Positions 14,260 to 44,801 are shown, counted from the first letter of the stretch. The stretch: DNA of 48,005 nucleotides from Fidelibacterota bacterium (GCA_947481595.1 CANKHC010000001.1:1-48005); one strand, 5' to 3'. A program made the numbers and translations. Notes: generated by a model not told the origin, from the letters alone.

Positions 14260-14289
14260 GGGTTGCGTGGGGAGGTGCCTCAGGCTGCT

Positions 14290-25782: not shown

Positions 25783-26271
25783 ATGAAGCTCAAAGCCCTT
25801 TGTGTTTCCACCGCGCTGATTTTCACAAGCAGTGTTGCCGGCGCCGCGGTCACACCGCCCAACCCCAAAGACCTCACCCAAGGCCATTGGGAACTCAACC
25901 TCGCCAAGTCCAAGTTCTGCAATAAGCCGCCGCAAAAAGGCGGACGCTGGATCTTCGATGCCGGCTGGGGCTTGATCGTGTTCGAGCAATCCGGCGTCAA
26001 TCCCGAAGGCAAGCCGACCAGCGGCCGCTATGTCGGCCGCTACGACGGCGACAAGTGGCCCGACATCGCCACGGGGCCGGCGCGCGAAGCCATCGTCTGG
26101 AAACAAGTCAACCCGAGCCGCGTCGAGTTCGCCCACTACGACAAGCAGGACAAGGTCACGTCGGAATATGTGCGCACCGTCACCGCCGACGGCCAACAGA
26201 TGACTCAGCACGCAAAATTCGTCGGACGTGAGTGCGAAGAAGACCAGGTCTTCGACCGCGTCAAAGATTGA
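25783..26271 (+). CDS. Small secreted protein of unknown function, paralog A
   Basis: GAGGGAGGA RBS and signal peptide MKLKALCVSTALIFTSSVAGAA. It shares PPNPKD..QG.W.L.L.KSKFC...IFDAGWGLIV...RYDG.K.P...W......EF.HYDK.DK.TS.Y.R.VTADGQQMTQ...FVG.EC....VFDR with the next gene. Confidence 0.7.
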   Translation: MKLKALCVSTALIFTSSVAGAAVTPPNPKDLTQGHWELNLAKSKFCNKPPQKGGRWIFDAGWGLIVFEQSGVNPEGKPTSGRYVGRYDGDKWPDIATGPAREAIVWKQVNPSRVEFAHYDKQDKVTSEYVRTVTADGQQMTQHAKFVGRECEEDQVFDRVKD

Positions 26272-26306: not shown

Positions 26307-26804
26307 ATGAAACTCATCACTGCGACACTCGCCGCGGCTTTCGCGCTCTCGGCCACCACGGCCATGGCCGCGATTGATCCGCCGAACCCGAAGGACTGGA
26401 TTCAGGGCAAGTGGCGGCTCAGTCTGACCAAATCGAAATTTTGCGGCGCGGCGTCGAAAGCCGAAGATCGCCACATCTTCGACGCCGGCTGGGGATTGAT
26501 CGTCACCGAATGGGGCGGCGAAACGGCTGACGGCAAGCCCATCGTCAACCGGTATGTCGCGCGCTACGACGGCGGCAAGTATCCCGCTAACGTTACGCGG
26601 CCAGACACGCCGACCTCCGAGTCGATCTCGTGGAAGCTGGTCGACAACCGCCATCTTGAATTTGTCCACTACGACAAGAAAGACAAGATCACCTCGACCT
26701 ACACCCGCGAAGTCACCGCCGACGGCCAGCAGATGACCCAGGTGAACACCTTCGTTGGGCAGGAGTGCAAAGACATCAAGGTCTTCGACCGCCTGGCCAA
26801 CTAG
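26307..26804 (+). CDS. Small secreted protein of unknown function, paralog B
   Basis: CAGGAG RBS and signal peptide MKLITATLAAAFALSATTAMAA. By eye, roughly half its residues are identical to paralog A, including both Cys residues. Confidence 0.7.
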   Translation: MKLITATLAAAFALSATTAMAAIDPPNPKDWIQGKWRLSLTKSKFCGAASKAEDRHIFDAGWGLIVTEWGGETADGKPIVNRYVARYDGGKYPANVTRPDTPTSESISWKLVDNRHLEFVHYDKKDKITSTYTREVTADGQQMTQVNTFVGQECKDIKVFDRLAN

Positions 26805-26826: not shown

Positions 26827-26870
26827 TTCGGCGCCGTGGGGCAAAGTCCTCACGGCGCCGAATGCGTTTT
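26827..26870 (+). terminator. Rho-independent terminator after paralog B
   Basis: TTCGGCGCCGTG-(12 nt)-CACGGCGCCGAA is a 12-bp perfect stem, followed by TGCGTTTT. Confidence 0.6.
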
Positions 26871-27530
26871 CAGGGATATGCCGTTTCGGTATCCCCAAGG
26901 TATTCCGGGAGCCATGCGGAATTGCTCTGTGACCTCTTCAGGGTCTAGCTTTTTTGTATGGCTTTGAGGCCGGTTTTGTTACGCCTTCTGCCTCGCCATG
27001 CCGGGCCAGAGTTTCCCACAACTAACTGATAAATATAACGAATATACCCCTCAGGCGACGCCCATTTTGCCCTCGAAACCGTCGCCGCGCCGCGCCTGGC
27101 CTCTATCGGCCACCGAACAGTTTTTTTAGAAGGGCCGCGGCCGCACTGCACAACCGGCCCAGGTCCGGACACCGGCGGCATTTATCTATAATATCAATAT
27201 CTTAACAAGACAAACCCGGAGCAGCGCGCGATGATATGCCCGTCGTGCTTGGCATCCAAAAAATAATTGTATTTCTATAGCTGCGCTGCCGGAGCTACTT
27301 AAATATGACACGACCGTGTTGCGGCCAGATCTTGCGGAGGTGGCCTTATCGCGGCTGGGATTGCGCCTAAGGGAGTTGGGAGCCGCGCTCGCGTCACCGG
27401 CTCATGAATGTCCGGTTCGCCGGACGCCTTTCAGTCCTTTTGCGGCGCCGCCAGCCCCCACATCACAAGACCACGGCTGCGGATGGTCAACGGCGCGGCA
27501 TACTATGCCGCACACTAAGGGAGAGAAGAG

Positions 27531-28661
27531 ATGTCACTTCGCAAAATTCTCATCGGCGGCTTGTCCTTCGCAGGCCTGGCCTTGGCTTCCACCAGCGCCT
27601 CCGCCGAAACCCGCGGCTACGCCATCGCGCAGTTCATGACCGCGACCTACGCCAACCCCGGCAATTGTCCGCAGGGCGGCAACGGCACGCCGACCGACCT
27701 CAAGGTGCGCATCCTGATGAAAGATCACGGGATGACCAAAGACCAGGCGCTCAAGGCCATCGAAGACGGCGACAAGATGCCCGACGGCAAGCGCATCGAC
27801 TTCCTGCGCCGTGGCACCATCAACGGCAAGCCCGCCGACATCTCCAACTTCCCGTACTCGGCGCCGGACTCCAAGATCGAGACCAACGTCGGCAAGCTCG
27901 GCCCGGGCTTCAATCTCGACGGCAAAGTCGACGCCGACGACTTCGAAGATCCCGACACGCATGAGAAGGGCATCGACAACCAGCTCATCCGCGCGCTGGG
28001 CTGCTTCGCGGTCTATGACATCCGCCGCCCCGTGCGCCCCTATCTCGAAGACATCACCTGGGACACCAACATGGACGCCATGGGCGCATGGCTGATGTCG
28101 GTCACCGGCGACGACCTGTCGAAGGACGGTCCGGTGAAGATCACCTTCGACCGCGCACTCAATCACCTGCTGCGCGACGCCCACGGCGGTGCCGCGTCTG
28201 ATGTGACCTTCATGGTCGATCCAAACCCGCGCTCGCACAGCGAGTTCCAGGGCCGCATCAAGGATGGCTATCTCGAAATCACACAGCACGGCGATTTCAC
28301 CATGCTCTCGGAAGCGCCGTTCCACCCGATCATTCAGTTTTCCAACACGCACCTGAAACTGAAGATGGGCGCGGACCGCAAGCTGACCGGCTACCTCGGC
28401 GGCTATGAGCCGTGGATGAACTACTACACCTTCTTGGCCATCCGCGGCGAAGGCACCGGCCAGGTCGATCTGCCCGGCTCCTATTACGCCATCAAGCGCA
28501 TGGCCGATGGTGTGCCGGATCCGAAAACCGGCGAGATGACCGCGATCTCGAATGCCTATTGGCTCGAGGCGGTGCCGGCTTTCCATGCGCTGTCCGACGG
28601 TCAGATCGCCGGCGCTAAGGGCAGCAAGGACCGCGATACGGAAGTCGCGAAAGCGCGCTAA
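27531..28661 (+). CDS. Secreted protein of unknown function (first gene of the exported cluster)
   Basis: AAGGGAGAG RBS plus ATG, and a Sec signal (MSLRKILIGGLSFAGLALASTSASAE). Normal coding composition. I recognise no family motif. Confidence 0.7.
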   Translation: MSLRKILIGGLSFAGLALASTSASAETRGYAIAQFMTATYANPGNCPQGGNGTPTDLKVRILMKDHGMTKDQALKAIEDGDKMPDGKRIDFLRRGTINGKPADISNFPYSAPDSKIETNVGKLGPGFNLDGKVDADDFEDPDTHEKGIDNQLIRALGCFAVYDIRRPVRPYLEDITWDTNMDAMGAWLMSVTGDDLSKDGPVKITFDRALNHLLRDAHGGAASDVTFMVDPNPRSHSEFQGRIKDGYLEITQHGDFTMLSEAPFHPIIQFSNTHLKLKMGADRKLTGYLGGYEPWMNYYTFLAIRGEGTGQVDLPGSYYAIKRMADGVPDPKTGEMTAISNAYWLEAVPAFHALSDGQIAGAKGSKDRDTEVAKAR

Positions 28662-28701
28662 TCGCGCGGCTCGCGATCGAATTGAATTGGAGCTTTGTAA
28701 A

Positions 28702-30366
28702 ATGCGTCGTTTCCTAAAACTTTCTACGGTACTCGCCGGTGTCGCTTGCGGCGCAATGCTGCTCTCTGCCGCGCCGATGTCGCAGGCTGTGGCCGCCGAA
28801 GAACTCACCTTCGTGCGCATCACGCCCGAGCAGTACCAGCGCACGATCCACGACATCTTCGGCAACAGCATCAAGCTCGATGCCAACGCCGTCGAAACCG
28901 GCTTCCGCGACCAGGGCCTCCTGGCTGTCGGCGCGCGCAAGCTCGCCATGACCTCGGCCGGCCTCGAGCAGTTCGAGCAGTTGGCCCAGCAGGTCGCCTT
29001 CCAGGTCGTCGATCCCAGCCGCAACGCCACCCTCGTGCATTGCCAGCCCAAGGCCAAGGACGCGGCGGATGATGCCTGTTCCGGCCAGTTCCTCGACCGC
29101 GTCGGCTTGCTTGTGCTGCGCCGTCCGCTGAAGGACCAAGAGCGCAAGGAATATCTCGCGACGGCCAACGCCGCCGCCACCAAACTCAAGAACTTCAACG
29201 CCGGCGTTGCCGCGGCCCTCGTGCAGATGCTGGTCAATCCGGAATTCCTCTTCCGCATCGAACGCTCCGAGCCCGATCCCAAAGCCGCCGGCAAGCAGCG
29301 CCTCGACAGCTATTCGATCGCATCCCGTTTGTCGTTCTTCATCTGGGATTCGACGCCGGACTCAGAACTGCTCGAAGCTGCGCGCACCGACAAGCTGCAG
29401 ACCGCCAAGGGTCTCTCGCAGCAGGTCGACCGCATGCTGAATTCGCCGCGCGCGGAAAATGGCCTGCGCGCCTTCTTCTCCGACATGCTGGGCTTCGACG
29501 GCTTCGCGACGCTGGTGAAGGACACGAACCTCTTCCCGAAGTTCACCAAGAATGCCGAAGACGAAGCGCGTGAGCAGACCCTGCGCACGCTCGTCGACCA
29601 GCTCCTGGAGCGCAACGGCGATTACCGCGATCTGTTCACTACCCGCGAAACTTTCTTGACGCCGTCGCTGGCCGCCCTTTACGGCGTGCCGCTGCCGCGC
29701 TCGCAGGAAATGGGCGGTGCGACGCCGTGGGTGGCTTACAAGTTCCCCGAAAACGACAACCACGTCGGCATCCTGACGCACGCGAGCTTCCTCGCCCTGC
29801 ATTCGCATCCCGGCAAGACCTCGCCGACGGTGCGCGGCAAGGCGTTGCGCGAAAACATCCTCTGCCAGAAGGTCCCGGCGCCTCCGGGCAACGTCGACTT
29901 CACGCTGATTCAGGACATCCACAACCCGAACCTGAAGACCGTGCGTCAGCGGCTCTTGGCCCACTCCACCAGCCCGGCCTGCGCCGGCTGCCACAAGATC
30001 ACCGACCCGATCGGTCTGTCGTTTGAGCACTTTGACTCGGTCGCCGAATACCGTCCCAACGAGAATGGCGCGGACATCGACGTCACCGGCTCGCTCAACG
30101 GCAAGGATTTCGACGGCGTGACCCAGCTCGCCGGCCTGCTGCGCAACGAACCGGCGGTCACATCCTGCCTGGTCAACCGCGTGTTCTCCTACGGCACCGC
30201 GCGCGTGCCCACCACCGACGAGCGCAAGTGGCTCACCAGCATGCAGACCGATCTCACCAAAAAGGGCGTGAAGTGGCGCGAAGTCGTGCGCGGCATCGCC
30301 ACCAACCCCGATTTCTACACCGTGACGACTGCGGCCCCTGAACAGAAATCCGCCCAGGCCAACTAG
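28702..30366 (+). CDS. DUF1592/DUF1588/DUF1585-type exported protein with a CxxCH motif
   Basis: Sec signal (MRRFLKLSTVLAGVACGAMLLSAAPMSQAVA). FVRITPEQYQRTIHDIFG, SRLSFFIWDSTPDSELL and CAGCHKITDPIGLSFEHFD match the PSD/PSCyt-type domain set usually paired with DUF1552. The start was set to the ATG at 28702, because the 50-codon extension in the track overlaps the previous gene. Confidence 0.75.
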   Translation: MRRFLKLSTVLAGVACGAMLLSAAPMSQAVAAEELTFVRITPEQYQRTIHDIFGNSIKLDANAVETGFRDQGLLAVGARKLAMTSAGLEQFEQLAQQVAFQVVDPSRNATLVHCQPKAKDAADDACSGQFLDRVGLLVLRRPLKDQERKEYLATANAAATKLKNFNAGVAAALVQMLVNPEFLFRIERSEPDPKAAGKQRLDSYSIASRLSFFIWDSTPDSELLEAARTDKLQTAKGLSQQVDRMLNSPRAENGLRAFFSDMLGFDGFATLVKDTNLFPKFTKNAEDEAREQTLRTLVDQLLERNGDYRDLFTTRETFLTPSLAALYGVPLPRSQEMGGATPWVAYKFPENDNHVGILTHASFLALHSHPGKTSPTVRGKALRENILCQKVPAPPGNVDFTLIQDIHNPNLKTVRQRLLAHSTSPACAGCHKITDPIGLSFEHFDSVAEYRPNENGADIDVTGSLNGKDFDGVTQLAGLLRNEPAVTSCLVNRVFSYGTARVPTTDERKWLTSMQTDLTKKGVKWREVVRGIATNPDFYTVTTAAPEQKSAQAN

Positions 30367-30404
30367 GGCTTGCGCAAGACAACGCTATTAACGGAGGTAC
30401 TGAC

Positions 30405-31754
30405 ATGAGTGCGATGGAAAGACTGAGCCGGCGTAATGTTCTGCGCGGCATGCTGGGCGGTGCAGCGATCACCGTCGGCCTCCCCATTCTCGAATGCCAT
30501 CTCACCGGCAACGGCGACGCGCTCGCCGCCACCGGCCAGGGCCTGCCGCCGTGCTTCGGCACCTGGTTCTGGGGCTTGGGCCTCTCGCAGGGTCACTGGG
30601 AGCCGAAGGAGACCGGCGACAAGTACGTCATGCGCGATCACCTGAAGTGCCTCGCCCCGATCAAGGAGAAGATCAACATCTACTCCGGCATGCAGATCTT
30701 CCTCGACGGCAAGATCAACCAGAACCACTACTCGGGCGCCCAGGGCCAGGCCACCGGCATGGTCTCCAAGACCGGCTCCGAGTACTCGACCAGCATCGAC
30801 ACCATGGTCGGCGACTTCATCGGCCGCGGCACGCGCTTCAAGTCGCTCGAAGCCGGCCTCGACGGCGACCGCAAGTCGACCTGGTCGGCGCGCGGTCAGA
30901 ACGGCCTCAACCCGGCGGAAATCTCGCCGGTGGCTCTCTACACCCGCATCTTTGGCTCGTCCTTCGTCGACCCGAACGCCGCCAACTTCACCCCGGACCC
31001 GAACACCATGGTCCGCCACAGCGTGCTGTCGTCGGTTTCGGACTATCGTGACTCGCTGATGAAGGAAGTCTCGGCCGCCGACCGCCAGCGCCTGGATGAA
31101 TACTTCACCTCGGTGCGCGACCTCGAAACCAAACTCGCCGTCGAACTCGAAAAGCCCATGGCGCTGCCGGGCTGCAAAGTGCCGGATTCCTTCAGCGAAG
31201 AAGACGTCGGCTCCTTGCTCGATCAGGCCAAGCAGAACCACCGCCTGTTCGCCAAGCTCATGACCAACGCCATGTCGTGCGGTCAGACCCGCATCTTCAA
31301 CCTGTCCATGGGCCAGGGCCTGGGCTCGCTGCGCAAAGCCGGCGAGATCCTCACCTACCACTCACTGACGCACGAAGAAGCGGTCGATCCGGTTGCGGGC
31401 GTTCAGCTCAAGTGCCATGCGATCGCCGAAAGCCTGATGGACAGCTTCCGCGAACTCGTCCAGCAGCTCGACTCGATCAAGGAAGGCGACAAGACCCTGC
31501 TCGATCGCACTCTCGTGTTCGCCTTCACCGATCACGGCCAGGCGCGCACGCACTCGATGCAGAAGTACCCGATCTTCACCGCTGGTTCGGGCGGTGGACG
31601 CATGAAGACCGGCATGCACATCAATGCCGAAGGCGACGCCGCGACCCGCGTCGGCTTCACCCTGATGCGCGCGCTGGGCATGCCGCTTGGCAGCTGGGGT
31701 ACGGAATCCAACAAGGCGACCAAGCCGTTCAACGAACTGCTGATCGAAGCCTAA
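30405..31754 (+). CDS. DUF1552-family protein with twin-arginine-like signal (copy A)
   Basis: ACGGAGG RBS. SRRNVLRGMLGGAAITVGLPILE is Tat-like. YHSLTHEEA fits the H..SH-type motif of DUF1552. It immediately follows a DUF1592-type gene, the usual pairing. Confidence 0.8.
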   Translation: MSAMERLSRRNVLRGMLGGAAITVGLPILECHLTGNGDALAATGQGLPPCFGTWFWGLGLSQGHWEPKETGDKYVMRDHLKCLAPIKEKINIYSGMQIFLDGKINQNHYSGAQGQATGMVSKTGSEYSTSIDTMVGDFIGRGTRFKSLEAGLDGDRKSTWSARGQNGLNPAEISPVALYTRIFGSSFVDPNAANFTPDPNTMVRHSVLSSVSDYRDSLMKEVSAADRQRLDEYFTSVRDLETKLAVELEKPMALPGCKVPDSFSEEDVGSLLDQAKQNHRLFAKLMTNAMSCGQTRIFNLSMGQGLGSLRKAGEILTYHSLTHEEAVDPVAGVQLKCHAIAESLMDSFRELVQQLDSIKEGDKTLLDRTLVFAFTDHGQARTHSMQKYPIFTAGSGGGRMKTGMHINAEGDAATRVGFTLMRALGMPLGSWGTESNKATKPFNELLIEA

Positions 31755-31778
31755 GTCTCTAGACGGAGGAAAAGCTCA

Positions 31779-33098
31779 ATGAAGAACACCAAGAAGACTC
31801 TGATCGCCGCGGCCGCGTTGACCGCCTTTGGCTTTTCCTCCGCTTACGCCGCGCAAGCGGTGATCCCCTCCGCGCCCGCCGGTGTCACGCTGGTCGAAGT
31901 GGTGCGCGAACTTCCCCTGTCGCAGCCCGAGTTCCTCTGGATGCGCCCGGGCGATGCCAACGGCCGCACGCTCTTCGTCTCCGCCGCCGATACCGCCGGC
32001 GTGTCGAAGTGCAACGCCGAATGCGCCAAGGAATGGATCCCGCTCGCGGTCCTTCCCGGCGCCAAGGGCTTCGGCGATTGGTCCGTCATCAAGCGTGCTG
32101 ATGGTGCTTCGCAGTGGGCCTACAAGACCCTTCCGCTTTACACCTGGGTCAAAGAAGAAGTCCCCGGCGACGTCGCCACCACGGTTGGCGTGACGGAAGT
32201 CGCCAACTCCAAGCTTGCCGAAAACGCCGTCAGGTTGGGCACGCTGACCCCGCCGGACGGATGGACGGTGGCGCGTTTTGAGCCGACCATGGCTGCCGCC
32301 ACACCCGATGGCGTGGACATGCGCATGATCCCTGGCGCACAAGGCATGGGCCTGACCGATTACGCCGGCATGACGATCTATGCCTATGATGGCGACGCTA
32401 AGAAGGACGGCCAGGTCTGCTCGTCTTCGGGCTGCAACATCACCTGGATCCCGGTCACCGCGCCGGCGCTGGCCGCCAACGTCGGCGAGTTCACGCTGGT
32501 TGCCCGCACCGACGGCACCAAGCAGTGGGCTTTCCAGAAGAAGCCCTTGTACCGCTACAAGGGCGACAAGCTGCCGGGCGATGCCAACGGCATCGGCGCC
32601 GACAAGAAGTTCACCGCCGCGGTGATGATGAGCAACTTCCGCCCCGAGGGTGTCGCGGTGGCCTTCCATGAAGGCTACGGCCAGGCGCTGACCATCAACG
32701 GCCAGGCGCTCTATACCGGCAACGCCTACGAAGCGCGCTGGGGCGGCCGTAACCTGCGCGACAACTACCGCAATGCCTACTACCGCGGCAAAAAACTCGG
32801 CGGCAACACCTGCCTGAGCGCCGAGTGCCTTGCCCGCTGGAAGCCTTTCGTCGCGCCCGCGAACGCCGTCGCCAACGGCTTCTGGGAAGTGATCAGCCGC
32901 GAAGACGGCACGAAGCAGTGGGCTTACAAGGGCTACGCGCTCTACACCTTTACCGGCGATAAGCCCGGTCAGATCAACGGCAGTGACACTTACGACATCG
33001 CCAACGACGGCGATGACGCCGACACCATCAAGCGCGCCTCGCTCTTGGTGGAAGTCAACGGCCGCGCCGGCGTGTACTGGCACATCGCGAAGCCCTAA
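31779..33098 (+). CDS. Secreted three-module repeat protein, COG4315 / PF03640-like (Yx[FWY]xxD and Cys-pair motifs), copy 1
   Basis: Sec signal. Three modules each carry C-x3/4-C-x3-W-x-P (CNAECAKEWIP, CSSSGCNITWIP, CLSAECLARWKP). Each is followed by DG..QWA(Y/F).....LY.(W/Y/F)..(E/D) (LYTWVKEEVPGD, LYRYKGDKLPGD, LYTFTGDKPG). Confidence 0.7.
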   Translation: MKNTKKTLIAAAALTAFGFSSAYAAQAVIPSAPAGVTLVEVVRELPLSQPEFLWMRPGDANGRTLFVSAADTAGVSKCNAECAKEWIPLAVLPGAKGFGDWSVIKRADGASQWAYKTLPLYTWVKEEVPGDVATTVGVTEVANSKLAENAVRLGTLTPPDGWTVARFEPTMAAATPDGVDMRMIPGAQGMGLTDYAGMTIYAYDGDAKKDGQVCSSSGCNITWIPVTAPALAANVGEFTLVARTDGTKQWAFQKKPLYRYKGDKLPGDANGIGADKKFTAAVMMSNFRPEGVAVAFHEGYGQALTINGQALYTGNAYEARWGGRNLRDNYRNAYYRGKKLGGNTCLSAECLARWKPFVAPANAVANGFWEVISREDGTKQWAYKGYALYTFTGDKPGQINGSDTYDIANDGDDADTIKRASLLVEVNGRAGVYWHIAKP

Positions 33099-33148
33099 CG
33101 GGTTTCGCGGGCGCCAACACCGGCGGCCCACGGGAGGGGATCCGTCGC

Positions 33149-34105
33149 ATGAAGGACCTGCACCAGCTTAAGATTTTTCTGAAGGTCGCCGAAGTCGGCT
33201 CCGTCAGTAAAGCTTCGGCGCAACTACGCATCGCGCAACCGGCCTTGAGCCGCCAAATCCGTCTACTTGAGGAAGAAGCCGGCGCGACCTTGTTCATGCG
33301 CCAGTGGCGCGGCATGAAGCTCACCGCCGCCGGCGTCGAGCTGCGCCGCACCATCTCCGGCGCTGTGCGCGACCTCGACCAGGCGCTCGCCAACATCCGC
33401 TCGCTCTCCAAGACTCCCTCCGGCCATGTGCGCATCGGCCTGGTCTCGACCGTCAGCGGCGCCATGACCGGGCGCATCGCCAAGCGCGTGGCCGCCGAGT
33501 TCCCCGGCATCACGCTGGCCATCACCGACGGTTTCTCGCTGCATCTGGTGGAATGGCTGCACCGCGGCGATCTCGACCTCGCCATCATCTGCGGCACGGT
33601 CATGGACCTGCACATGCAGGCCGATGAACTCATCGTCGACGAACTGGTCGTCATCGGCGGGCCGCATAGCTCGCTGGACCCCAACCGTCCGGTGTCGGTC
33701 AAAGAACTCATCACCATGCCGCTGGTGCTGCCCAGCAATCCGAATGGCATGCGCCGCATCGTCGAAAACGCCGCCGCCAAGATGCGCGCCAAGCTCGACA
33801 TCCGCTTCGAAGGTGATTCGCTCAGCGTGCTGAATGAGCTCACCGCCGCAGGCGTCGGCCACGCCGTCGTGCCGCTGTCGTCCTTCCTCTACGAGCAGAA
33901 GGAACGCGGCATGAAGCTCAAATACGCCCCGATCATCCGCCCCAAGCTCACCAAGCAGCTGATCCTCGCGCGGCCCTCCGAAGGCGAGCTCTCGCCCTCG
34001 GCCACGCGCGTGCACCGCCTCATCCGCGAGGAATTCGCTGCCGCCGTGCGTACCGGCGGGCTCGAGGGTGCCCACCTGCTGTTCGATCTCAGGAAATCGG
34101 CCTAG
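33149..34105 (+). CDS. LysR-family transcriptional regulator, co-directional inside the cluster
   Basis: MKDLHQLKIFLKVAEVGSVSKASAQLRIAQPALSRQIRLLEEEAGATLFMR is a canonical LysR winged HTH. A substrate-binding domain follows. GGGAGGGGA RBS. Confidence 0.9.
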   Translation: MKDLHQLKIFLKVAEVGSVSKASAQLRIAQPALSRQIRLLEEEAGATLFMRQWRGMKLTAAGVELRRTISGAVRDLDQALANIRSLSKTPSGHVRIGLVSTVSGAMTGRIAKRVAAEFPGITLAITDGFSLHLVEWLHRGDLDLAIICGTVMDLHMQADELIVDELVVIGGPHSSLDPNRPVSVKELITMPLVLPSNPNGMRRIVENAAAKMRAKLDIRFEGDSLSVLNELTAAGVGHAVVPLSSFLYEQKERGMKLKYAPIIRPKLTKQLILARPSEGELSPSATRVHRLIREEFAAAVRTGGLEGAHLLFDLRKSA

Positions 34106-34121
34106 TCATAAAGAGGTTGCC

Positions 34122-35414
34122 ATGCGTCTCATTGCCGCCGCCGTCGTACTCCTCAGCGCTTCATCCGCTCTGGCCGCGCCGCAGACGGTGCCGCAGGGCG
34201 TGACGCTGGTCGAAGTGGTGCGCGAGCTCTCTTCCTCGCAGCCTGAATTCCTTTGGATGCGCCCCGGCGACCCCGACGGCCGCACGCTCTTCACATACGC
34301 GAAAGACGCTCCCGGCGTTTCCAACTGCACCGGCGCTTGCGCTCAGGAATGGATCCCCTTCGCCGTCAACGGCAAGGCTTTCGGCGACTGGACGGCGATC
34401 AAACGTGCCGACGGCGCCCAGCAATGGGCCTACCGTGGCCAACCGCTTTACACCTGGGTGAAAGAAGAAGTCCCCGGCGACGTCGCCACGACTGTTGGCG
34501 TGAAAGAGGTCTTCAACTCCAAGCTCGCCGAAAACGCCCGCAAGCTGAACGAACTCGAACCTCCAGCCGACTGGAAAATTGCGCGCTTCAACGCCGCCGG
34601 CACCCGCAGCGTCCCGGACGGTGTCGACATCCGCAGTGTCGCCGGCGCCCAAGGCATCATCCTCACTGACTTCGCCGGCCTCACGCTTTACGCCTACGAC
34701 GGCGACGCCAAGAAGGACGGCCAACGCTGCTCGTCTTCGGGCTGCAACGTCACCTGGATCCCGGTCACTGCCCCCGCACTCGCCGCCAACGTCGGCGATT
34801 TCACGCTGGTGTCCCGCAACGACGGCACCCAGCAGTGGGCCTGGCAGAAGAAGCCGCTCTACCGCTTCAAGGACGACAAACTGCCCGGCGACGTGCACGG
34901 CGTGGGCATCGACAAGAAATGGGCCGTCGCCCAGCTCTCCGACGATTTCCGCCCCGCCGGCGTCGACATCGCCTTCCACGAAGGCTACGGCGACGCGCTG
35001 ACCGTGAACGGCATGACCCTCTACACCGGCATCGCATATGAAAAACGTTGGGGCGGGCGGAACCTGCGCGACAACTACCGCAACGCCTATTACCGCGGCA
35101 AAAAACTCGCCGGCAACACGTGTCTCACCAGCGATTGCCTCACCCGCTGGAAGCCCTTCGCCGCCCCCGCCGCCGCCGTCGCCAGCGGTTTCTGGGAGCC
35201 CATCGCCCGCGAAGACGGCACCAAGCAGTGGTCCTACAAAGGCTATGCACTTTACACCTACACCGGCGACAAGGTCGCAGGCGAGATGAACGGCAACGAC
35301 GCCTACGACATCGCCGACTACAACGACGTGTCCGACGAAGCCTACAAACGCAATTCGCTGCTGGTCGAAGTCAACGGCGTCAACAGCGTCTACTGGCACA
35401 TCGCCAAGCCATAA
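34122..35414 (+). CDS. Secreted three-module COG4315 / PF03640-like repeat protein, copy 2
   Basis: Sec signal MRLIAAAVVLLSASSALAA. Same architecture as copy 1 (CTGACAQEWIP, CSSSGCNVTWIP, CLTSDCLTRWKP) and the same C-terminus VYWHIAKP. Confidence 0.7.
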   Translation: MRLIAAAVVLLSASSALAAPQTVPQGVTLVEVVRELSSSQPEFLWMRPGDPDGRTLFTYAKDAPGVSNCTGACAQEWIPFAVNGKAFGDWTAIKRADGAQQWAYRGQPLYTWVKEEVPGDVATTVGVKEVFNSKLAENARKLNELEPPADWKIARFNAAGTRSVPDGVDIRSVAGAQGIILTDFAGLTLYAYDGDAKKDGQRCSSSGCNVTWIPVTAPALAANVGDFTLVSRNDGTQQWAWQKKPLYRFKDDKLPGDVHGVGIDKKWAVAQLSDDFRPAGVDIAFHEGYGDALTVNGMTLYTGIAYEKRWGGRNLRDNYRNAYYRGKKLAGNTCLTSDCLTRWKPFAAPAAAVASGFWEPIAREDGTKQWSYKGYALYTYTGDKVAGEMNGNDAYDIADYNDVSDEAYKRNSLLVEVNGVNSVYWHIAKP

Positions 35415-35440
35415 CGCCGGCGGCCTGGAGGAGGAGGGAG

Positions 35441-36787
35441 ATGGCAGTGAGCAAACGTCTGAATCGGCGCACGGTCCTGCGCGGGATGCTCGGTGGTGCT
35501 GCGGTCACCGTCGGCCTGCCGATCCTCGAATGCCATCTGACCTCGAACGGTGCGGCGCTTGCCGCCACCGGCAACGCGCTGCCCCCCTGCTTCGGTACCT
35601 GGTACTGGGGCCTCGGTTTGATTCAGGGCCTCTGGGAGCCTAAGGAAACCGGGCCAAACTACAGCTTGCGCGAACACCTCAAGGTGCTCGAGCCGGTCAA
35701 AGACAAGATCAACCTGTTCAGCGGCATGCAGGTCTTCCTCGACGGCAAGGTCAACCAGAACCACTATTCCGGCGCCCAAGGCCAGGCCACCGGCATGGTC
35801 TCGAAGAACGGCAGCGACTACTCCTCCAGCATCGACACCCTGATCGGCCAGCACATCGGCCGCGGCACACGCTTCCGCTCCATCGAAGTGGGCAACAACG
35901 GCGACCGCCGCGCCACCTGGAGTGCCCGCGGCTTCAACGGCATGAACCCCGCCGAGATCTCGCCCATGGCGGTCTACCGGCGCATCTTCGGACCCGAATT
36001 CAAAGATCCCAACGCCGCCGACTTCACGCCCGATGTGAATGTCATGGTGCGCCAGAGCGTGCTTTCGGCCATCTCCGAACACCGCAATGCTCTGATGGGC
36101 GAGGTCTCCGCCGCCGACCGCCAGCGCCTCGATGAATACTTCACCTCCGTGCGCGACATCGAGAACAAGCTGGCCGTCGAACTCCAGCGCCCGGCCGCGC
36201 TGCCCGGCTGCCGCGTCCCCGAAGCGCTGGTCGAAGAAGAGGTCGGCGACCTGCTCGATCAGGTCAAAACCAACCACCGCCTGTTCGCCCGCCTGCTCGC
36301 TGGCGCCATGTCTTGCGGCCAGACCCGCGTCGTCAACTTCGCCATGGGCAACGGCACCGGCAACACCATCCGCCGCAACGGCGAGATCGTCAGCTATCAC
36401 TCCCTCACGCACGAAGAGGCGGTCGACCCCGCCCTGGGCTATCAGGTCAAGTGCAAGGCGCTGGCGGAAGAAATGATGGGCTGCTTCCGCGAGCTGGTGC
36501 AGCTCTTGGATGGCGTGAAGGAAGGCGACGGCACGCTGCTCGACCGCACGCTTCTCTATGCTTTCACCGACCACGGTGAGGCCCGCACCCACTCCCTGCA
36601 GAAATACCCCATCCTCACCGCCGGCTCAGGCGGCGGCCGCATGAAGACCGGCTATCACATCAATGCCGAAGGCGACGCCGCCACGCGCGTCGGCTTCACC
36701 CTCCAGCGCGCGCTTGGCATGCCCGTGGGCAGCTGGGGTACTGAATCCAACACGGCCACCAAGCCGTTCAGCGAAATCCTCGTCTAA
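35441..36787 (+). CDS. DUF1552-family protein with twin-arginine-like signal (copy B)
   Basis: GGAGGAGGAGGGAG RBS plus ATG at 35441. NRRTVLRGMLGGAAVTVGLPILE. It is colinear with copy A over the full length, with roughly three quarters of residues identical by eye. The 131-codon extension in the track is an R-rich out-of-frame overlap with the previous gene. Confidence 0.8.
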   Translation: MAVSKRLNRRTVLRGMLGGAAVTVGLPILECHLTSNGAALAATGNALPPCFGTWYWGLGLIQGLWEPKETGPNYSLREHLKVLEPVKDKINLFSGMQVFLDGKVNQNHYSGAQGQATGMVSKNGSDYSSSIDTLIGQHIGRGTRFRSIEVGNNGDRRATWSARGFNGMNPAEISPMAVYRRIFGPEFKDPNAADFTPDVNVMVRQSVLSAISEHRNALMGEVSAADRQRLDEYFTSVRDIENKLAVELQRPAALPGCRVPEALVEEEVGDLLDQVKTNHRLFARLLAGAMSCGQTRVVNFAMGNGTGNTIRRNGEIVSYHSLTHEEAVDPALGYQVKCKALAEEMMGCFRELVQLLDGVKEGDGTLLDRTLLYAFTDHGEARTHSLQKYPILTAGSGGGRMKTGYHINAEGDAATRVGFTLQRALGMPVGSWGTESNTATKPFSEILV

Positions 36788-36797
36788 GGACCTTGTT

Positions 36798-38105
36798 ATG
36801 AAAAAAGCGTTTCTGTCCGCTGCCGTTCTGCTCTCCGCCGGCACTGCCTTCGCCGCCGACGCGCCGACAGCCACCACGCCCAAAGGCCTCACCCTGATCA
36901 ACGTCGAGCGCGAGCTCGAGTTTTCGCAGCCGGAGTCCCTCTGGATCCGTCCTGGCGATGCCGATGGCCGCACGCTTTTCTTCTCCGACGCCGACGCGCC
37001 TGGCGTTTCCAACTGCACCGCCGCCTGTGCCAAGGAATGGATTCCTGTGGCCGTGCCCGCCGGCGCCAAGCCCACCGGCGATTGGTCGATCATCAAGCGC
37101 GCCGACGGCGTGCAGCAGTGGGCTTACAATTCGCGACCGGTCTACACCTGGGTCAAGGAAGAACGTCCCGGCGACGTCGCCACGGGTGTGGCCGTCGATG
37201 CCGTCTTCAATTCCAAGCTCGCCCAGAAAGTCATCGCCTTCAGCGACCTGCGTCCGCCCAAGGGCTGGAACGTCGTGCGCTTCGAACCTTCGATCAAAAC
37301 CAAGGCGCCCGACGGCATTGATGCCCGGGTCAACGTCTACGCCGAAGGCGTGACGCTCACCGATTTCGACGGCCTGACGCTGTACGCCTTCGACGGCGAT
37401 GCCAAGAAAGACGGCCAAGTCTGCTCCTCCTCGAGCTGCACCACCCCGTGGATGCCGGTCTCCGCACCGTCGCTGGCCGCCAATGTCGGTGACTTCTCCA
37501 TCGCGCTCCGCGCCGACGGCAGCCGCCAGTGGGCCTTTAAGAAAAAGCCCCTCTACCGCTTCAAGGCCGATCTACTTCCGGGGGACACCAAAGGCCGCGG
37601 CGTCGACAAGAAATTCGCGGTAGCACTTCTCACCGAAACCTTCCGCCCCGCCGGCGTCACCATCACGCCGCTCAACGGCTACGGCTCCATGCTGACGATC
37701 AACGGCCAGGCGCTTTACACCGGCGTTGCTTACGAAGCGCGCTGGGGCGGGCGCAACCTGCGCGACGGCTACCGCAACATGTACTACAAGGGCAAACAGA
37801 TGGGCGGCCAGACCTGCGTCTCGGCGGCGTGCCTCGCGCTGTGGCAGCCCTTCCGTCCGGGCCCGGATGCCCAATCCAACGGTTACTGGGAAGTCATCAG
37901 CCGCGATGATGGCACCAAGCAGTGGGCCTACAAGGGCTACGCACTCTACACCTACACCGGCGACAAAGCCCCCGGCGACTTCAACGGCAACGACACCTAC
38001 GACAGTTTCATCAGCGACGGTGTGGATGAGAAATTCCAGCAAGCCGCCTGGCTTGTGGAAATGAACGGCCGCGCGGGCGTCTACTGGCACATCGCCAAGC
38101 CGTAA
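36798..38105 (+). CDS. Secreted three-module COG4315 / PF03640-like repeat protein, copy 3
   Basis: Sec signal MKKAFLSAAVLLSAGTAFA. Motifs CTAACAKEWIP, CSSSSCTTPWMP and CVSAACLALWQP. C-terminus VYWHIAKP. Confidence 0.7.
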   Translation: MKKAFLSAAVLLSAGTAFAADAPTATTPKGLTLINVERELEFSQPESLWIRPGDADGRTLFFSDADAPGVSNCTAACAKEWIPVAVPAGAKPTGDWSIIKRADGVQQWAYNSRPVYTWVKEERPGDVATGVAVDAVFNSKLAQKVIAFSDLRPPKGWNVVRFEPSIKTKAPDGIDARVNVYAEGVTLTDFDGLTLYAFDGDAKKDGQVCSSSSCTTPWMPVSAPSLAANVGDFSIALRADGSRQWAFKKKPLYRFKADLLPGDTKGRGVDKKFAVALLTETFRPAGVTITPLNGYGSMLTINGQALYTGVAYEARWGGRNLRDGYRNMYYKGKQMGGQTCVSAACLALWQPFRPGPDAQSNGYWEVISRDDGTKQWAYKGYALYTYTGDKAPGDFNGNDTYDSFISDGVDEKFQQAAWLVEMNGRAGVYWHIAKP

Positions 38106-38123: not shown

Positions 38124-39050
38124 CTACGGCGTGCGCATGCTGTCTACAAAGGCCTGGGCGGGGCCGGACTTGAACGCCAGCGCCTCCGCCACCGTACGCA
38201 TTTCGGCGGGCAGTGGGTACATGTGCTGATATTGCAGCGCTTGGCGCATGATCAGGCGCAGCCGCGTCATGATGTCGAGCGTGGCGGCGGGGTCGAATTG
38301 CGGCTCATAGATCGGCGGCTGATCGCCGCGCTGGAATTCCACCGATATGCTGCTGCGCGGTGTGGTCACCGGAGCACGCGCGCGTCCGCCCCAGTGGAAC
38401 AACGCTTGCGTCCATCCCAGAACGCCGCCAGCGGCACTCGGCAGCGCGCGCACGTCCTGCAGCGTGATCGGTGACTCCTGCTCGCGCGCCGTGCCGTAAT
38501 ACACTTCGCGGTCTGCCGGCACGACGTACATACAGCCGTTCTGCGGTGTCGCTTCGGTCAACGGCAGCCATACCGTCAGCGATTTGGGACTGCGGTCGGG
38601 CAACAACGACTTGTGCCCCATGTCGCGATGGGGCGACCAGCCTGCGCCCTCGCGCTTGCCGTTCACGTGCCAGGCCCAGAAGGCCGGTTGCATGCGGTAC
38701 TGTTCACCCAGCACCGCCTGCAACAGCCCGCGCAGCCGCGCGAACATCAACCAAGCTTCGTCGTACATGAACAGGAACACCGGCGGGAATCCAGCAGCGT
38801 CCAACGCCGCGACGCCCGCCGCGAGCTTGGCGACATCGATGCCCCAGTCCTGCGGCGGTAACTGGAAATAGCCTTCGCGCACGAGATCGGCGCGCACGCT
38901 GTCTACAACGTCGGCGCGGAACGCGATCGGCGTCACCGCGGCAGCCGCCAGGCGCGCATCGCCGATGTGAAGCTTGGGCGCGATCCCGAGCCAAAGCCCG
39001 GCATCGCTTAACTGCGCCAACTGCTTGGCCACGTCATGAGCTGTCGTCAT
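38124..39050 (-). CDS. Phytanoyl-CoA dioxygenase (PhyH)-like Fe(II)/2-oxoglutarate oxygenase
   Basis: AGGAGG RBS plus ATG at 39048-39050. WSPHRDMG (HxD) ...LTVWLPLTEATPQNGCMYVVPAD... ALFHWGG fits the PhyH facial-triad layout. Confidence 0.6.
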   Translation of the reverse strand: MTTAHDVAKQLAQLSDAGLWLGIAPKLHIGDARLAAAAVTPIAFRADVVDSVRADLVREGYFQLPPQDWGIDVAKLAAGVAALDAAGFPPVFLFMYDEAWLMFARLRGLLQAVLGEQYRMQPAFWAWHVNGKREGAGWSPHRDMGHKSLLPDRSPKSLTVWLPLTEATPQNGCMYVVPADREVYYGTAREQESPITLQDVRALPSAAGGVLGWTQALFHWGGRARAPVTTPRSSISVEFQRGDQPPIYEPQFDPAATLDIMTRLRLIMRQALQYQHMYPLPAEMRTVAEALAFKSGPAQAFVDSMRTP

Positions 39051-39200
39051 GGCCTCCTTATGCCACGGCGACCCCGGCGGGGCGACTCGCCCGCATCCAG
39101 ATCCCACTACAATCTTTACGTGCCCCCTCCGCAACGCTAGTATGGTTTCGACGCCCAACATAAAGGCACAGAAAGTCCCTTTATTACAAAGACTTGGGCT

Positions 39201-41111
39201 ATGGCTGACAGTGCGGGCAGGGGACCGGTGTCACGGGGAATCGCCACATATAAGTATTGGCTCGCAGCCGGCGCGGCCCTCCTGGTGGAGGGTGCGGCCC
39301 GCGCCGCCGTGATTGAAGACCTGACCCAGCTCTCGATCGAGGAACTGGCCAACATCGAAGTCACCTCGGTCTCGAAAAAAGCCGAACCCCTCAGTGCCGC
39401 CCCCGCGGCCATTTATGTCATCACCGGCGACGACATCCGCCGCTCCGGCGTCACCTCCGTGCCGGAGGCGCTGCGCCTCGCCCCCAATCTCGAGGTCGCG
39501 CGCCTGGACGCGCTCAGCCACACCATCTCGGCGCGCGGCTTCAATTCCACCGAAGCCTCCAACAAACTCCTCGTCCTGGTCGATGGACGCAGCGTCTATT
39601 CCCCGCTGCATTCCGGCGTCCTCTGGGACGCTCAGGACATGATGCTCGAGGACATCGAGCGCATCGAAGTCATCGGCGGACCAGGCGGCACACTATGGGG
39701 TGCCAACGCCGTCAACGGCGTCATCAACATCATCAGCAAGCCGGCCTCGGCCACCCACGGCGGCCTCATCACCGGCAACTACGGCACCATCGACGACACC
39801 ATCGCCGGCCGCTTTGGCGGCCAGGCCGGCGGCGTGGACTACCGCCTCTACGCCAAAGCCTTTCAGCGCGACCACAGCCGCAACCCCGACGGCACCAATC
39901 ACATCGATGCATGGGATCATGTTCAGGGCGGCTTCAATTTCGGCTACGGCGACGACACCAACCAGTTCACCTTGCACGGCGATGCCTACACCGGCTCCTT
40001 GGACGCAGCGGTCGGCGACGAAACCTCGGGCAAGAACGCGGTCTTCACCTGGTCACGCGCCATCGGCACGTCGCTGCCGATCAGGGTCCAGGCCTATTAC
40101 GACCGCACCCACCGTAATCAGTCCGTCCTGACCGAGACCGTCAAAACCGCCGACATCGAAGTCCAGCATGGCTTCGACATCGGCACGCAAAATCAGATTA
40201 TCTGGGGCGGCGGCTACCGCAGTGTGCACGACACCTACGACGTGCCGCCGCCGTTCGGCGTGGTCACCAAATCGGCGCACCGCCAGCTCGCCAATGCCTT
40301 CGTTCAGGATGAACTCACCCTCAGTCCCACCTTCAAGGCCACCGCCGGCATCAAGATCGAACACCACACCGCCACGGGTTTTGAATTCCTCCCCAACCTG
40401 CGGCTTTCATGGCGCCCGTCAGAGACCATGCTGTGGTGGGCTGCCGCCAGCCAGGCCGTGCGCACGCCGTCGCGCCTCGACCGCGAGCTCGTGGCGCTGC
40501 CGATCCTGATTCCGGCGCCGAATTTCGATTCCGAGACGCTCACCGCCTACGAGCTCGGTTACCGCGGCGAACTCGCGCCGAGCTTCACGCTGTCGATCTC
40601 AACCTTCTACAATGAATACGACGGCCTGCGCACGACCAGCCTCCTGCCGCCGGGTGCCGGCGCGCTCGCGCAGTTGCAGAACGGCATGGACGGCCACACC
40701 TACGGCGCCGAGATCTGGGGCCAGTACGCACTCACCGAATTTTGGCGCCTCTCGGGCGGGTTGATGATCCTGCGCAAGCGCCTGGGCTTCAAACCGGGCG
40801 TGATCGACGCTTCCAACATGCAAGCCGCCGGCAACGACCCCGGCCATCAGGTCCAACTGCGTTCGATCATGACCCCGCTGCCCGAACTCGAATTCGACGT
40901 CGGCCTGCGCGTCATCGGCGAGCTGCGTTCGGCCGGCATCCCCAGCTACACCGAGATCGACGCCCGCGTCGGCCTGCACATCAGCGAGCACCTCGATTTC
41001 AACGTCACCGCTTTCAATCTGGTGAACAAGGTGCATCCCGAAGGCGGTCCAGTGAACACGCGCCGCCTCATCCGGCGCAGCGTGAATGCCGGTTTTGCCT
41101 ATAGATTCTAA
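39201..41111 (+). CDS. TonB-dependent receptor (~630 aa class)
   Basis: LSIEELANIEVTSVSKKAEPLSAAPAAIYVITGDDIRRSGVTSVPEALRLAPNLEV is the plug. IERIEVIGGPGGTLWGANAVNGVINII is also present. The barrel ends ...NAGFAYRF. Confidence 0.85.
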   Translation: MADSAGRGPVSRGIATYKYWLAAGAALLVEGAARAAVIEDLTQLSIEELANIEVTSVSKKAEPLSAAPAAIYVITGDDIRRSGVTSVPEALRLAPNLEVARLDALSHTISARGFNSTEASNKLLVLVDGRSVYSPLHSGVLWDAQDMMLEDIERIEVIGGPGGTLWGANAVNGVINIISKPASATHGGLITGNYGTIDDTIAGRFGGQAGGVDYRLYAKAFQRDHSRNPDGTNHIDAWDHVQGGFNFGYGDDTNQFTLHGDAYTGSLDAAVGDETSGKNAVFTWSRAIGTSLPIRVQAYYDRTHRNQSVLTETVKTADIEVQHGFDIGTQNQIIWGGGYRSVHDTYDVPPPFGVVTKSAHRQLANAFVQDELTLSPTFKATAGIKIEHHTATGFEFLPNLRLSWRPSETMLWWAAASQAVRTPSRLDRELVALPILIPAPNFDSETLTAYELGYRGELAPSFTLSISTFYNEYDGLRTTSLLPPGAGALAQLQNGMDGHTYGAEIWGQYALTEFWRLSGGLMILRKRLGFKPGVIDASNMQAAGNDPGHQVQLRSIMTPLPELEFDVGLRVIGELRSAGIPSYTEIDARVGLHISEHLDFNVTAFNLVNKVHPEGGPVNTRRLIRRSVNAGFAYRF

Positions 41112-41120
41112 TCCTCTGAT

Positions 41121-44743: not shown

Positions 44744-44751
44744 AAAGAAGA

Positions 44752-44775: not shown

Positions 44776-44801
44776 TAAACATTCAGAGAAGAAAATCTCT
44801 C

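Follow-up and report, generated by a model that had tools for sequence, protein, structure and literature searches.

RESULTS

An array of eight genes, seven of them for exported proteins

Contig CANKHC010000001.1 of assembly GCA_947481595.1, labeled as a Fidelibacterota bacterium, carries a compact array of eight genes that encode seven apparently exported proteins and one LysR-type regulator. We call the whole stretch of DNA analyzed here (positions 1 to 48005, 48,005 nucleotides) the window and the genes G1 to G8, the regulator being G5 (Table 1). A previous sequence-only reading of this DNA had described eight co-directional genes set 10 to 50 nucleotides (nt) apart. This was borne out by a listing of the open reading frames (ORFs) and by the gene calls of the source contig. 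From G1 to G8, the intergenic gaps are 40, 38, 24, 50, 16, 26, and 10 nt according to the ORF listing and an inspection of the start codons, and a plausible ribosome-binding site precedes each of the eight starts. All eight product lengths are identical in the gene calls of the ENA metagenome contig ERZ27277814:k141_6707902 (219,968 bp), which contains the window. The cluster is no assembly artifact, because a second independent assembly (L088) carries the same eight-gene layout and a third (L089) agrees with it up to its end inside G2.

Pfam searches upheld every family call of the sequence-only reading above the gathering cut-offs. G2 contains, in this order, PF07637 PSD5 (52.7 bits against a cut-off of 34.2), PF07631 PSD4 (123.9 against 23.3), PF07627 PSCyt3 (94.3 against 27), and PF07624 PSD2 (37.4 against 25.8), in addition to a PSD3 match of 18 bits that remains below its cut-off. 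It has a single CxxCH motif for heme c, which reads CAGCH (residues 427 to 431). G3 and G7 belong to the DUF1552/HXXSHH family (PF07586), with 147.5 and 162.1 bits at a cut-off of 30; G4, G6, and G8 match PF03640 at 136 to 151 bits with 4 to 5 repeats each; and G5 combines HTH_1 (70.4 bits) with LysR_substrate (110.3 bits). No NCBIfam equivalog reached its cut-off with G5, which hence has no named subtype.

Signal peptides were judged by eye from the N-terminal sequences. By this inspection, all seven nonregulatory products look exported, as had been proposed: G1, G2, G4, G6, and G8 have Sec-type N termini without a lipobox, and G3 (SRRNVLRG) and G7 (NRRTVLRG) have twin-arginine N termini, for which export by the twin-arginine translocation (Tat) pathway is predicted. 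The Pfam TAT_signal match to the DUF1552 proteins is weak, with an Expect value (E) of 0.19.

TABLE 1 Features of the gene cluster and its surroundings. Positions are those of the window except in the last row, which refers to relative loci; aa, amino acids.
Feature	Position	Strand	Description
G1	27531-28661	+	376 aa, secreted; first cassette gene
G2	28702-30366	+	554 aa, DUF1592-type with one CxxCH
G3	30405-31754	+	449 aa, Tat-type DUF1552 (copy A)
G4	31779-33098	+	439 aa, PF03640 protein 1; fourth cassette gene
LysR (G5)	33149-34105	+	318 aa, in-line regulator
G6	34122-35414	+	430 aa, PF03640 protein 2
G7	35441-36787	+	448 aa, Tat-type DUF1552 (copy B)
G8	36798-38105	+	435 aa, PF03640 protein 3
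Conserved upstream block	27236-27276	+	Palindrome ATGCC-N10-GGCAT (27236-27255) and 12-mer AATTGTATTTCT (27265-27276)
Terminator-like hairpin after sm2	26827-26862	+	15-bp stem, then T-rich tail
TonB-dependent receptor	22698-25637	+	979 aa (source gene call agrees); Plug and TonB_dep_Rec_b-barrel
sm1, small secreted protein	25783-26271	+	162 aa; no Pfam or NCBIfam family
sm2, small secreted protein	26307-26804	+	165 aa; no family; 53% identical to sm1
Plug-less outer-membrane barrel protein	20366-22348	-	660 aa; TIGR01783 positions 421-649 only
Baeyer-Villiger monooxygenase-esterase fusion	~17.5-20 kb in L061, L063-L066, L068		

The conserved unit is a cassette of four genes

Relatives of the cluster were sought with one genome per GTDB species. 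The scan gave 129 relatives, of which the best 80, all of them metagenome-assembled genomes (MAGs), were examined. By their labels, these 80 loci comprise 43 from Acidobacteriota (mostly Vicinamibacterales), 13 from Gammaproteobacteria (Pseudohongiella, OM182, and others), 11 from Rhodospirillaceae, 5 from Steroidobacteraceae, 5 from Marinimicrobia, and 3 others; some of the MAG taxon labels (Marinimicrobia, Acidimicrobiia) may be binning errors. No cultured host was identified, and a cluster look-up of ten divergent G1 representatives gave no organism names. ORFs were called in each relative locus and then matched to the window proteins, and a copy of G1 was considered testable when enough DNA lay downstream of it (n = 73).

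The order G1-G2-G3-G4 is kept in 65 of the 73 testable copies, or in 68 when two loci with a frameshift in G2 and one with a wider spacing are also counted. In a reverse test, two G3 homologues picked independently from a G3 search both proved to lie inside the same four-gene cassette. The conserved unit is thus the four genes G1 to G4 and not all eight, and it occurs in the same order in at least four phyla by MAG label. The sequence-only reading was therefore right about the clustering, but the conserved unit is smaller than the array that it described, everything beyond G4 being clade specific. Its suspicion that a DUF1592-type/DUF1552 pair is coupled here to PF03640 proteins and an unfamiliar secreted protein was well founded: the neighborhood recurs in other genomes, and the coupling is conserved and not fortuitous.

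Within the cassette, G2 and G3 differ from their relatives elsewhere in the same genomes. Cassette-type proteins are 45 to 76% (G2) and 46 to 82% (G3) identical to those of the window, compared with 29 to 34% and 26%, respectively, for generic DUF1592-type/DUF1552 pairs. Judged by these identities, cassette G2 and G3 are distinct orthologous subfamilies. The CxxCH motif is retained in all 65 cassette orthologues of G2 and is invariant in the family alignment, and the twin-arginine motif is likewise present in 65 of 65 orthologues of G3. G3 is the most conserved subunit, with 63 to 65% identity between this alphaproteobacterial contig and Acidobacteriota.

The second half of the array has a narrower distribution. 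In the closest relative, L005 (77% identity in G1), there are three repeat genes and no second DUF1552 gene at the position corresponding to that of G7, which is itself 74% identical to G3. G4, G6, and G8 are one-to-one orthologues of the first, second, and third repeat genes of L005 (71, 71, and 74% identity), so the triplication predates the split of the two lineages; within the window, the paralogues G6 and G4 share 71% identity. Because L005 has the three repeat genes but lacks the second DUF1552, the LysR-G6-G7-G8 tail is, on sequence comparison, an expansion of the cassette's G3/G4 part that is particular to this clade.

G1 represents a new protein family that is fused to cassette partners

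G1 matches no Pfam or NCBIfam family, in the case of Pfam even at E ≤ 5. An LSM match seen at that threshold is at chance level only, and an LSM- or snRNP-like nature of G1 was therefore rejected; the label "snRNP-like" given to G1 homologues by JGI probably rests on such an LSM-type chance match. A word-indexed search found 812 family members, and clustering at 50% identity gave 865 representatives at E ≤ 1e−3, 564 of them at E ≤ 1e−10. G1 is hence a new protein family of at least 865 clusters at 50% identity. Forty-eight of its positions are invariant, including two cysteines and many charged residues.

An AlphaFold2 model of G1 built from 75 homologues was confident (predicted local distance difference test [pLDDT] score of 81.6 and predicted template-modeling score [pTM] of 0.80). 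A Foldseek search of the PDB with this model returned nothing at E ≤ 1e−3; the best match had an E of 0.11 and a template-modeling (TM) score below 0.2. Small beta-barrels (the PknI sensor, bradavidin, and lipocalin) were rejected as fold relatives on account of query TM scores below 0.2. Single-sequence and profile searches of PDB sequences with G1 gave nothing meaningful, and hhalign detected no relation between the G1 profile and G2, G3, G4, the small secreted proteins sm1 and sm2 encoded upstream, or a small Pseudohongiella protein. If the model is correct, G1 would represent a new fold. The presence of DUF1302/DUF1329 and YceI genes near some loci had suggested that G1 and sm1/sm2 might be lipocalin-like binders of a hydrophobic substrate, an idea that was dropped for want of significant structural or profile support.

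Pfam searches with the long representatives of the G1 family revealed fusion proteins. In P0258 (933 aa) and P0264 (963 aa), G1 is joined to a PSD3-PSD5-PSD4-PSCyt3-PSD2 arrangement, and in P0242, P0263, P0296, P0303, P0310, and P0383, it is joined to PF03640 repeats. Four of these sequences were read (P0258, P0264, P0242, and P0296). In each, a short hydrophilic linker runs from the G1 domain into the mature N terminus of the G2-like or G4-like part, which has no second signal peptide, so these are genuine fusion proteins rather than the result of read-through in gene calling. The fusions to PF03640 occur although G1 and G4 are not adjacent in the cassette. A two-gene variant at L079 (9923 to 12459) lacks G2 and G3: the gene for a PF03640 protein of 459 aa comes directly after G1 and overlaps it by 4 nt. 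The Rhodospirillaceae MAG concerned has complete cassettes on other contigs. As Rosetta stones, the G1-G2 and G1-G4 fusions tie G1 to both G2 and G4. We infer that the four products assemble in the periplasm as a complex, and we consider it highly probable that the cassette functions as one conserved unit and forms a complex.

G3 is predicted to have an alkaline-phosphatase-superfamily fold

Comparison with PDB sequences by single-sequence and profile searches revealed no solved structure detectably related to G2 or G4 and no sequence-level similarity for G3. A model of G3 built from 62 homologues was of moderate quality (pLDDT, 70.5; pTM, 0.77). When it was compared with the PDB by Foldseek, 13 of 13 matches at E ≤ 1e−3 were members of the alkaline-phosphatase superfamily, with E down to 2e−6 and a probability of 1.0. 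Significant matches included steroid sulfatase (1P49), choline sulfatase (6FNY), and an uncharacterized member of the superfamily (3LXQ); arylsulfatase A, cofactor-independent phosphoglycerate mutase, phosphonate monoester hydrolase, and LtaS followed with weaker E values. The sequence TDHG, which follows the strand formed by residues 369 to 374 of G3, is invariant in 62 of 62 family members and resembles the metal-binding DHG of the alkaline-phosphatase superfamily. D101, H108, H319, H323, and H383 are invariant as well. The Pfam Sulfatase family gave no match to G3 even at E ≤ 5. According to the model, G3 has a sulfatase/phosphatase-like fold of the alkaline-phosphatase superfamily and is thus no longer without a fold assignment, but it is not a type I sulfatase.

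The literal HxxSHH motif is absent from both G3 and G7, which read HSLTHE at this place, and HxxTH[ED] is found in 52 of 62 cassette-type members. The subfamily thus departs from the motif that gave the family its name.

The PF03640 proteins consist of three units with cysteine pairs

G4, G6, and G8 share an architecture of three units of ~130 aa, each with a C-x3-4-C pair followed by QWAYK..PLY[TR][FWY]..D, which contains the PF03640 motif Y-x-[FWY]-x-x-D. All three cysteine pairs are present in 52 of the 65 G4 orthologues, and the second and third pairs are invariant. The N termini of the three proteins end in AYA-A, ALA-A, and AFA-A; as no cysteine is found there, the signal peptides are of the signal peptidase I type by inspection. 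Consistent with this, the SCO0930 lipoprotein equivalog scored 117 to 138 bits against the repeat proteins, below its cut-off of 275. No other cassette gene varies as much in copy number as that for the PF03640 protein, which would be expected of a specificity or binding component.

A dedicated LysR regulator and a conserved upstream element

Close orthologues of G5 accompany the cassette in several relatives, in varying settings: in line in L005 (93% identity), on the opposite strand downstream in L002 and L009 (77%), and divergent upstream in L006 (74%). Other LysR genes near cassettes are only ~30% identical to G5. G5 is therefore a dedicated regulator whose position has been shuffled, in agreement with the proposal that the array has a private LysR.

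The region before G1 had been taken for a 725-nt noncoding leader. It is indeed intergenic (726 nt), but it is more than a leader: it opens with a terminator-like hairpin and contains a conserved block that could serve as a promoter or operator. Because strong terminator-like hairpins follow both the receptor gene and sm2, the receptor-sm1-sm2 genes are probably transcribed separately from the operon that begins with G1. Rfam had no matches in the whole window, so the region contains no known riboswitch.

Only a block of ~90 nt within the 726 nt is conserved with the closest relative. The window has the 12-mer AATTGTATTTCT exactly once 5′ of G1, and so does every one of the seven distinct relative loci from the alphaproteobacterial clade with a LysR orthologue (L001, L002, L003, L005, L006, L007, and L009), at a distance of 141 to 266 nt; none of the 79 other loci has it. 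In the window and L005, it is preceded by the palindrome ATGCC-N10-GGCAT. Given this distribution, the stretch from 27236 to 27276 is a candidate LysR operator or promoter, at which the regulator may bind. Closer to G1, a short palindrome, GCGGCATA-C-TATGCCGC (positions 27493 to 27511, 20 to 38 nt 5′ of the G1 start), is not conserved in L005 and could be a small hairpin in the 5′ untranslated region or a second operator half-site. A scan with the sigma-70 consensus found 0 sites, and a search for Pho boxes yielded 3 sites, all of them with 3 mismatches, which does not exceed chance expectation.

Receptor genes and other neighbors of the cassette

Upstream of G1 in the window lie genes for a TonB-dependent receptor, the small secreted proteins sm1 and sm2, and an outer-membrane barrel protein (Table 1). 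The barrel protein lacks a Plug domain, resembles TonB-dependent siderophore receptors (TIGR01783) in their C-terminal barrel only, and reaches the threshold of no Pfam family. Orthologous receptors with 41 to 81% identity are found within 10 kb of the cassette in 13 loci, and more distant receptors in 2 more; all 15 loci carry a Proteobacteria or Marinimicrobia label. Identity is 60 to 81% in Rhodospirillaceae and Steroidobacteraceae and 41 to 46% in further Rhodospirillaceae- and Marinimicrobia-labeled loci. Orthologues of sm1 (50 to 74%) follow the receptor in L002, L003, L005, L006, L007, L009, L015, L039, and L004/L011, and those of the barrel protein lie beside the cassette in L005 and L004/L011 (60 to 65%) or directly 5′ of G1 in L077 and L080-L083 (33 to 35%). 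The receptor, sm1, sm2, and the barrel are thus syntenic parts of the proteobacterial version of the cassette, and this synteny backs the link to TonB-dependent uptake that had been suspected from the single sequence. The two small proteins share the motif G-x-W-x-L-x-L-x-K-S-K-F and a conserved cysteine pair; their hhalign probability with a possibly related 158-aa protein encoded beside the cassette in Pseudohongiella is 53%, over 47 columns.

Downstream of the array, positions 38124 to 47306 contain genes for a PhyH-like dioxygenase (−), a TonB-dependent receptor of the TOL_0244 family (714.7 bits against a cut-off of 645), PhoX (−), PhoD (+), and another receptor (−). Among the relatives, only L005 has this phosphate-scavenging neighborhood, to the extent that its locus covers it (PhyH and PhoX).

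Other lineages have other neighbors. Pyrroloquinoline quinone (PQQ) dehydrogenases (PF01011) are found near the cassette in 25 of the 80 loci (raw count) and also in L086 and L091, though not in the window. They lie directly 3′ of G4, at ~15.3 to 17.9 kb, in seven Acidobacteriota loci, six of them labeled Vicinamibacterales (L022, L024, L025, L026, L029, L032, and L037), and just 5′ of G1 in the Pseudohongiella/OM182 loci L061, L063-L066, and L068. The same six Pseudohongiella/OM182 loci encode, 3′ of the cassette, an 862-aa fusion of a Baeyer-Villiger-type flavin monooxygenase and an alpha/beta-hydrolase (Abhydrolase_3). Further recurrent neighbors are DUF1302, DUF1329, multiheme cytochromes, aldehyde dehydrogenase, and a ProP-like transporter of the major facilitator superfamily (MFS); an MFS transporter, an inner-membrane protein, is encoded beside the cassette in L002 and L004.

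On contig DASYEW010000047.1 of a Steroidobacteraceae MAG, two complete cassettes (L011 and L015) are ~14.6 kb apart, each with its own TonB-dependent receptor, and a penicillin-amidase-family gene and an MFS transporter gene are close by. In the window, a DUF6496 gene (65 aa; 20114 to 20311, −) sits between an ABC transporter gene and the gene of the plug-less barrel, a place conserved in L005. Positions 2 to 15384 hold unrelated genes, which encode FecR and a TonB-dependent receptor with an STN domain, a protein binding cyclic nucleoside monophosphates, a beta-helix/NosD-like protein, topoisomerase IB beside DUF763, a flavin adenine dinucleotide-dependent oxidoreductase, an iron-containing redox enzyme (Haem_oxygenas_2), and a chaperone-usher pilus pair. 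The GC content dips to 0.58 to 0.60 at positions 5001 to 7000.

DISCUSSION

PSCyt3/DUF1592 and DUF1552 domains were first described in Rhodopirellula baltica. Pairs of them are known from Planctomycetes, Verrucomicrobia, and Acidobacteria, and G2 and G3 (as well as G7) meet the Pfam definitions, stand in the usual adjacent order, and have the CxxCH motif and the twin-arginine N terminus, respectively. G2 and G3 hence belong to a known, uncharacterized class of pairs, as G4 belongs to PF03640 and G5 to the LysR regulators. However, the cassette proteins form a distinct subfamily with only 26 to 34% identity to generic pairs, and they are flanked by G1, which is sometimes fused, and by a three-unit PF03640 protein. 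In addition, G2 is short and lacks the N-terminal Cytochrome_CBB3 or carbohydrate-binding domains of other DUF1592 members, and G3 and G7 have HSLTHE in place of the name-giving HxxSHH. In the literature searched in full text, we found no description of the four-gene cassette, the G1 family, the fusions, the LysR with its cis element, or the linkage to the receptor, in line with the earlier impression that the combination is not a recognized pathway.

Other known systems resemble the cassette in part. The pairs of PSCyt1/PSCyt2 (DUF1549/DUF1553) and DUF1501 also consist of a large exported CxxCH protein and a Tat-type partner, and DUF1501 is also sulfatase-like; these pairs belong to other Pfam families, and we found no description of G1 or PF03640 partners for them. 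They are likewise uncharacterized according to PMC5615132 and the literature searched. The predicted fold of G3 is matched only by type I sulfatases and further enzymes of the alkaline-phosphatase superfamily, and G3 also has the T-D-H-G after a strand. G3 differs from them by its lack of sequence similarity and of C/S-x-P-x-R, by its putative obligate heme c partner, and by predicted Tat export. Loci centered on TonB-dependent receptors include the carbohydrate utilization (CUT) loci of Xanthomonas and polysaccharide utilization loci. As in these, proteobacterial cassette loci combine a syntenic receptor gene with genes for a dedicated regulator and for uncharacterized, presumably periplasmic processing proteins, and in L002 and L004 an MFS gene is adjacent; however, the cassette loci have no glycoside hydrolases, SusD, or other known degradative enzymes, and most lineages lack the receptor.

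What could such a cassette do? We tentatively propose that it encodes a TonB-fed, LysR-controlled periplasmic enzyme complex with a catalytic subunit of alkaline-phosphatase fold and a heme c partner. The products of G1 to G4 would be subunits of one periplasmic complex. G3, exported by Tat, would be the catalytic subunit and, if its modeled fold is a guide, may cleave or transfer a phosphate, sulfate, or similar ester group. G2 would act as its obligate heme c partner, in electron transfer or a redox-linked step. G1 and G4 could be substrate-binding or scaffold subunits that stand in for the carbohydrate-binding or lectin modules to which other PSCyt proteins are fused; we hypothesize this because the copy number of PF03640 varies, because G1 is fused to G4-like and G2-like parts, and because other PSCyt3/DUF1592 proteins carry carbohydrate-binding modules (PMC5615132; PMC6004670). 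In the alphaproteobacterial lineage, the substrate would cross the outer membrane via the syntenic receptor, possibly helped by the two small secreted proteins and the plug-less barrel, and the dedicated LysR may act on the conserved upstream element to control expression. The extra repeat-DUF1552-repeat paralogues might broaden specificity or capacity. A catabolic route would fit, in which periplasmic cleavage of an ester frees an alcohol for subsequent oxidation, since genes for alcohol and aldehyde oxidation and an MFS transporter neighbor the cassette in other lineages.

Several observations weigh against this proposal. The structural match of G3 is at the level of the fold only, with TM scores of 0.33 to 0.37 on a model with a pLDDT of 70.5. 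An acidic pair after the first strand of G3 was not seen, and the formylglycine motif [CS]xPxR is absent from G3 and G7 and is found, at whatever position, in only 5 of 62 family members; the canonical chemistry of the superfamily is therefore not assured. As G3 is a predicted Tat substrate, its invariant, widely spaced cysteines C257, C292, and C337 might be a sign of a redox cofactor instead. In the Acidobacteriota and Pseudohongiella loci, which represent most cassette-bearing lineages, there is no receptor beside the cassette. The neighbors vary (PQQ dehydrogenases, monooxygenase-esterase fusion, aldehyde dehydrogenase, MFS transporter, and PhoX/PhoD), and no single substrate can be named from them. 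Finally, no functional study under the DUF, PSCyt, PF03640, or COG4315 names was found in the literature searched.

Other explanations were weighed against the same evidence. The genes nearest to the array suggest a phosphate-starvation module, in which G3 would be a phosphoesterase or phosphodiesterase that frees phosphate from an imported organophosphorus compound as part of a Pho-type response with PhoX and PhoD. PhoX and PhoD are Tat-exported metallophosphatases, and in the window and its closest relative the genes for them, for the PhyH-like dioxygenase, and for further TonB-dependent receptors come directly after the array; the predicted fold of G3 would fit as well. However, this neighborhood is confined to the clade of the window, the flanks being unrelated in Rhodospirillaceae, Steroidobacteraceae, Acidobacteriota, and Pseudohongiella; no Pho box exceeds chance; the dedicated regulator is a LysR and not PhoB; and the heme partner is left unexplained. 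We consider such a module improbable, and the phosphate-scavenging genes, which the sequence-only reading had used as a clue to function, are a lineage-specific feature. The receptor synteny, the cysteine pairs, the heme c partner, and the recurrence of PQQ dehydrogenases, which depend on calcium or lanthanides, would also accord with the acquisition of a metal or cofactor: the receptor would import a chelate (iron, copper, lanthanide, or PQQ), G2 would release or reduce the metal, and the PF03640 proteins and G1 would chaperone it. Yet the most conserved subunit, an enzyme of alkaline-phosphatase fold, has no obvious role in metal handling, no inner-membrane metal transporter or FecIR-type or Fur-type element recurs (the nearby ABC transporter does so only in the closest relative), most cassettes (Acidobacteriota and Pseudohongiella) have no adjacent receptor, and LysR regulators are typical of catabolic operons. 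There is little probability, in our view, that metal acquisition is the function.

By analogy, the cassette also resembles the Sox system, with a periplasmic heme c protein, a Tat-exported protein of hydrolase fold, and a cysteine-bearing protein that is sometimes fused to its partner; SoxY and SoxZ can occur fused. In a pathway of Sox logic, the pair of G1 and G4 would be a carrier like SoxYZ by virtue of the G4 cysteines, G2 would load it oxidatively with a small sulfur or phosphorus species, either inorganic or organic, and the sulfatase-like G3 would hydrolyze the oxidized group off. The invariance of the second and third cysteine pairs of G4 and the variable copy number of the PF03640 gene are consistent with such a carrier. 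On the other hand, Pfam and NCBIfam searches with the eight proteins detected no sequence or family relation to SoxXA, SoxB, SoxYZ, or any other Sox protein, C-x3-4-C pairs are most readily explained as structural disulfides when they occur in a periplasmic protein exported by Sec, sulfur-metabolism genes do not recur nearby, and small inorganic ions need no TonB-dependent receptor, which makes the analogy a decidedly improbable guide to function. That unrelated genes for exported proteins were merely thrown together, or wrongly assembled, might be suspected of a window from a metagenome contig, but the agreement between independent assemblies, the conservation of gene order across phyla, and the fusion proteins exclude chance, and the probability left for this explanation is negligible.

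A more far-reaching form of the proposed complex would be a redox-coupled four-subunit enzyme, in which a subunit of alkaline-phosphatase fold works with an obligate heme c subunit and either a Sox-like G1/PF03640 carrier or a new cofactor at the G3 cysteines, with G1 having a new fold. We regard this as rather unlikely.

Few gene families have expanded as strongly in Planctomycetes, Verrucomicrobia, and Acidobacteria as those of the PSCyt-type cytochrome-like proteins and of the DUF1552 or DUF1501 proteins paired with them. The cassette is a compact, single-copy-like form of such a pair under strong constraint, with 63 to 65% identity of G3 between phyla, and it offers an entry point to the function of the pair. 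Owing to two fixed extra partners, the fusions, a LysR with its cis element, and a linked receptor, this function can be approached by expression, reconstitution, and inducer screening, and the cassette adds to the pair the new G1 family, whose confident model has no structural relative in the PDB. If the redox-coupled four-subunit reading were true, it would show by what general mechanism the PSCyt-DUF1552 and PSCyt-DUF1501 pairs work, which number in the hundreds and dominate the genomes of Planctomycetes, Verrucomicrobia, and Acidobacteria.

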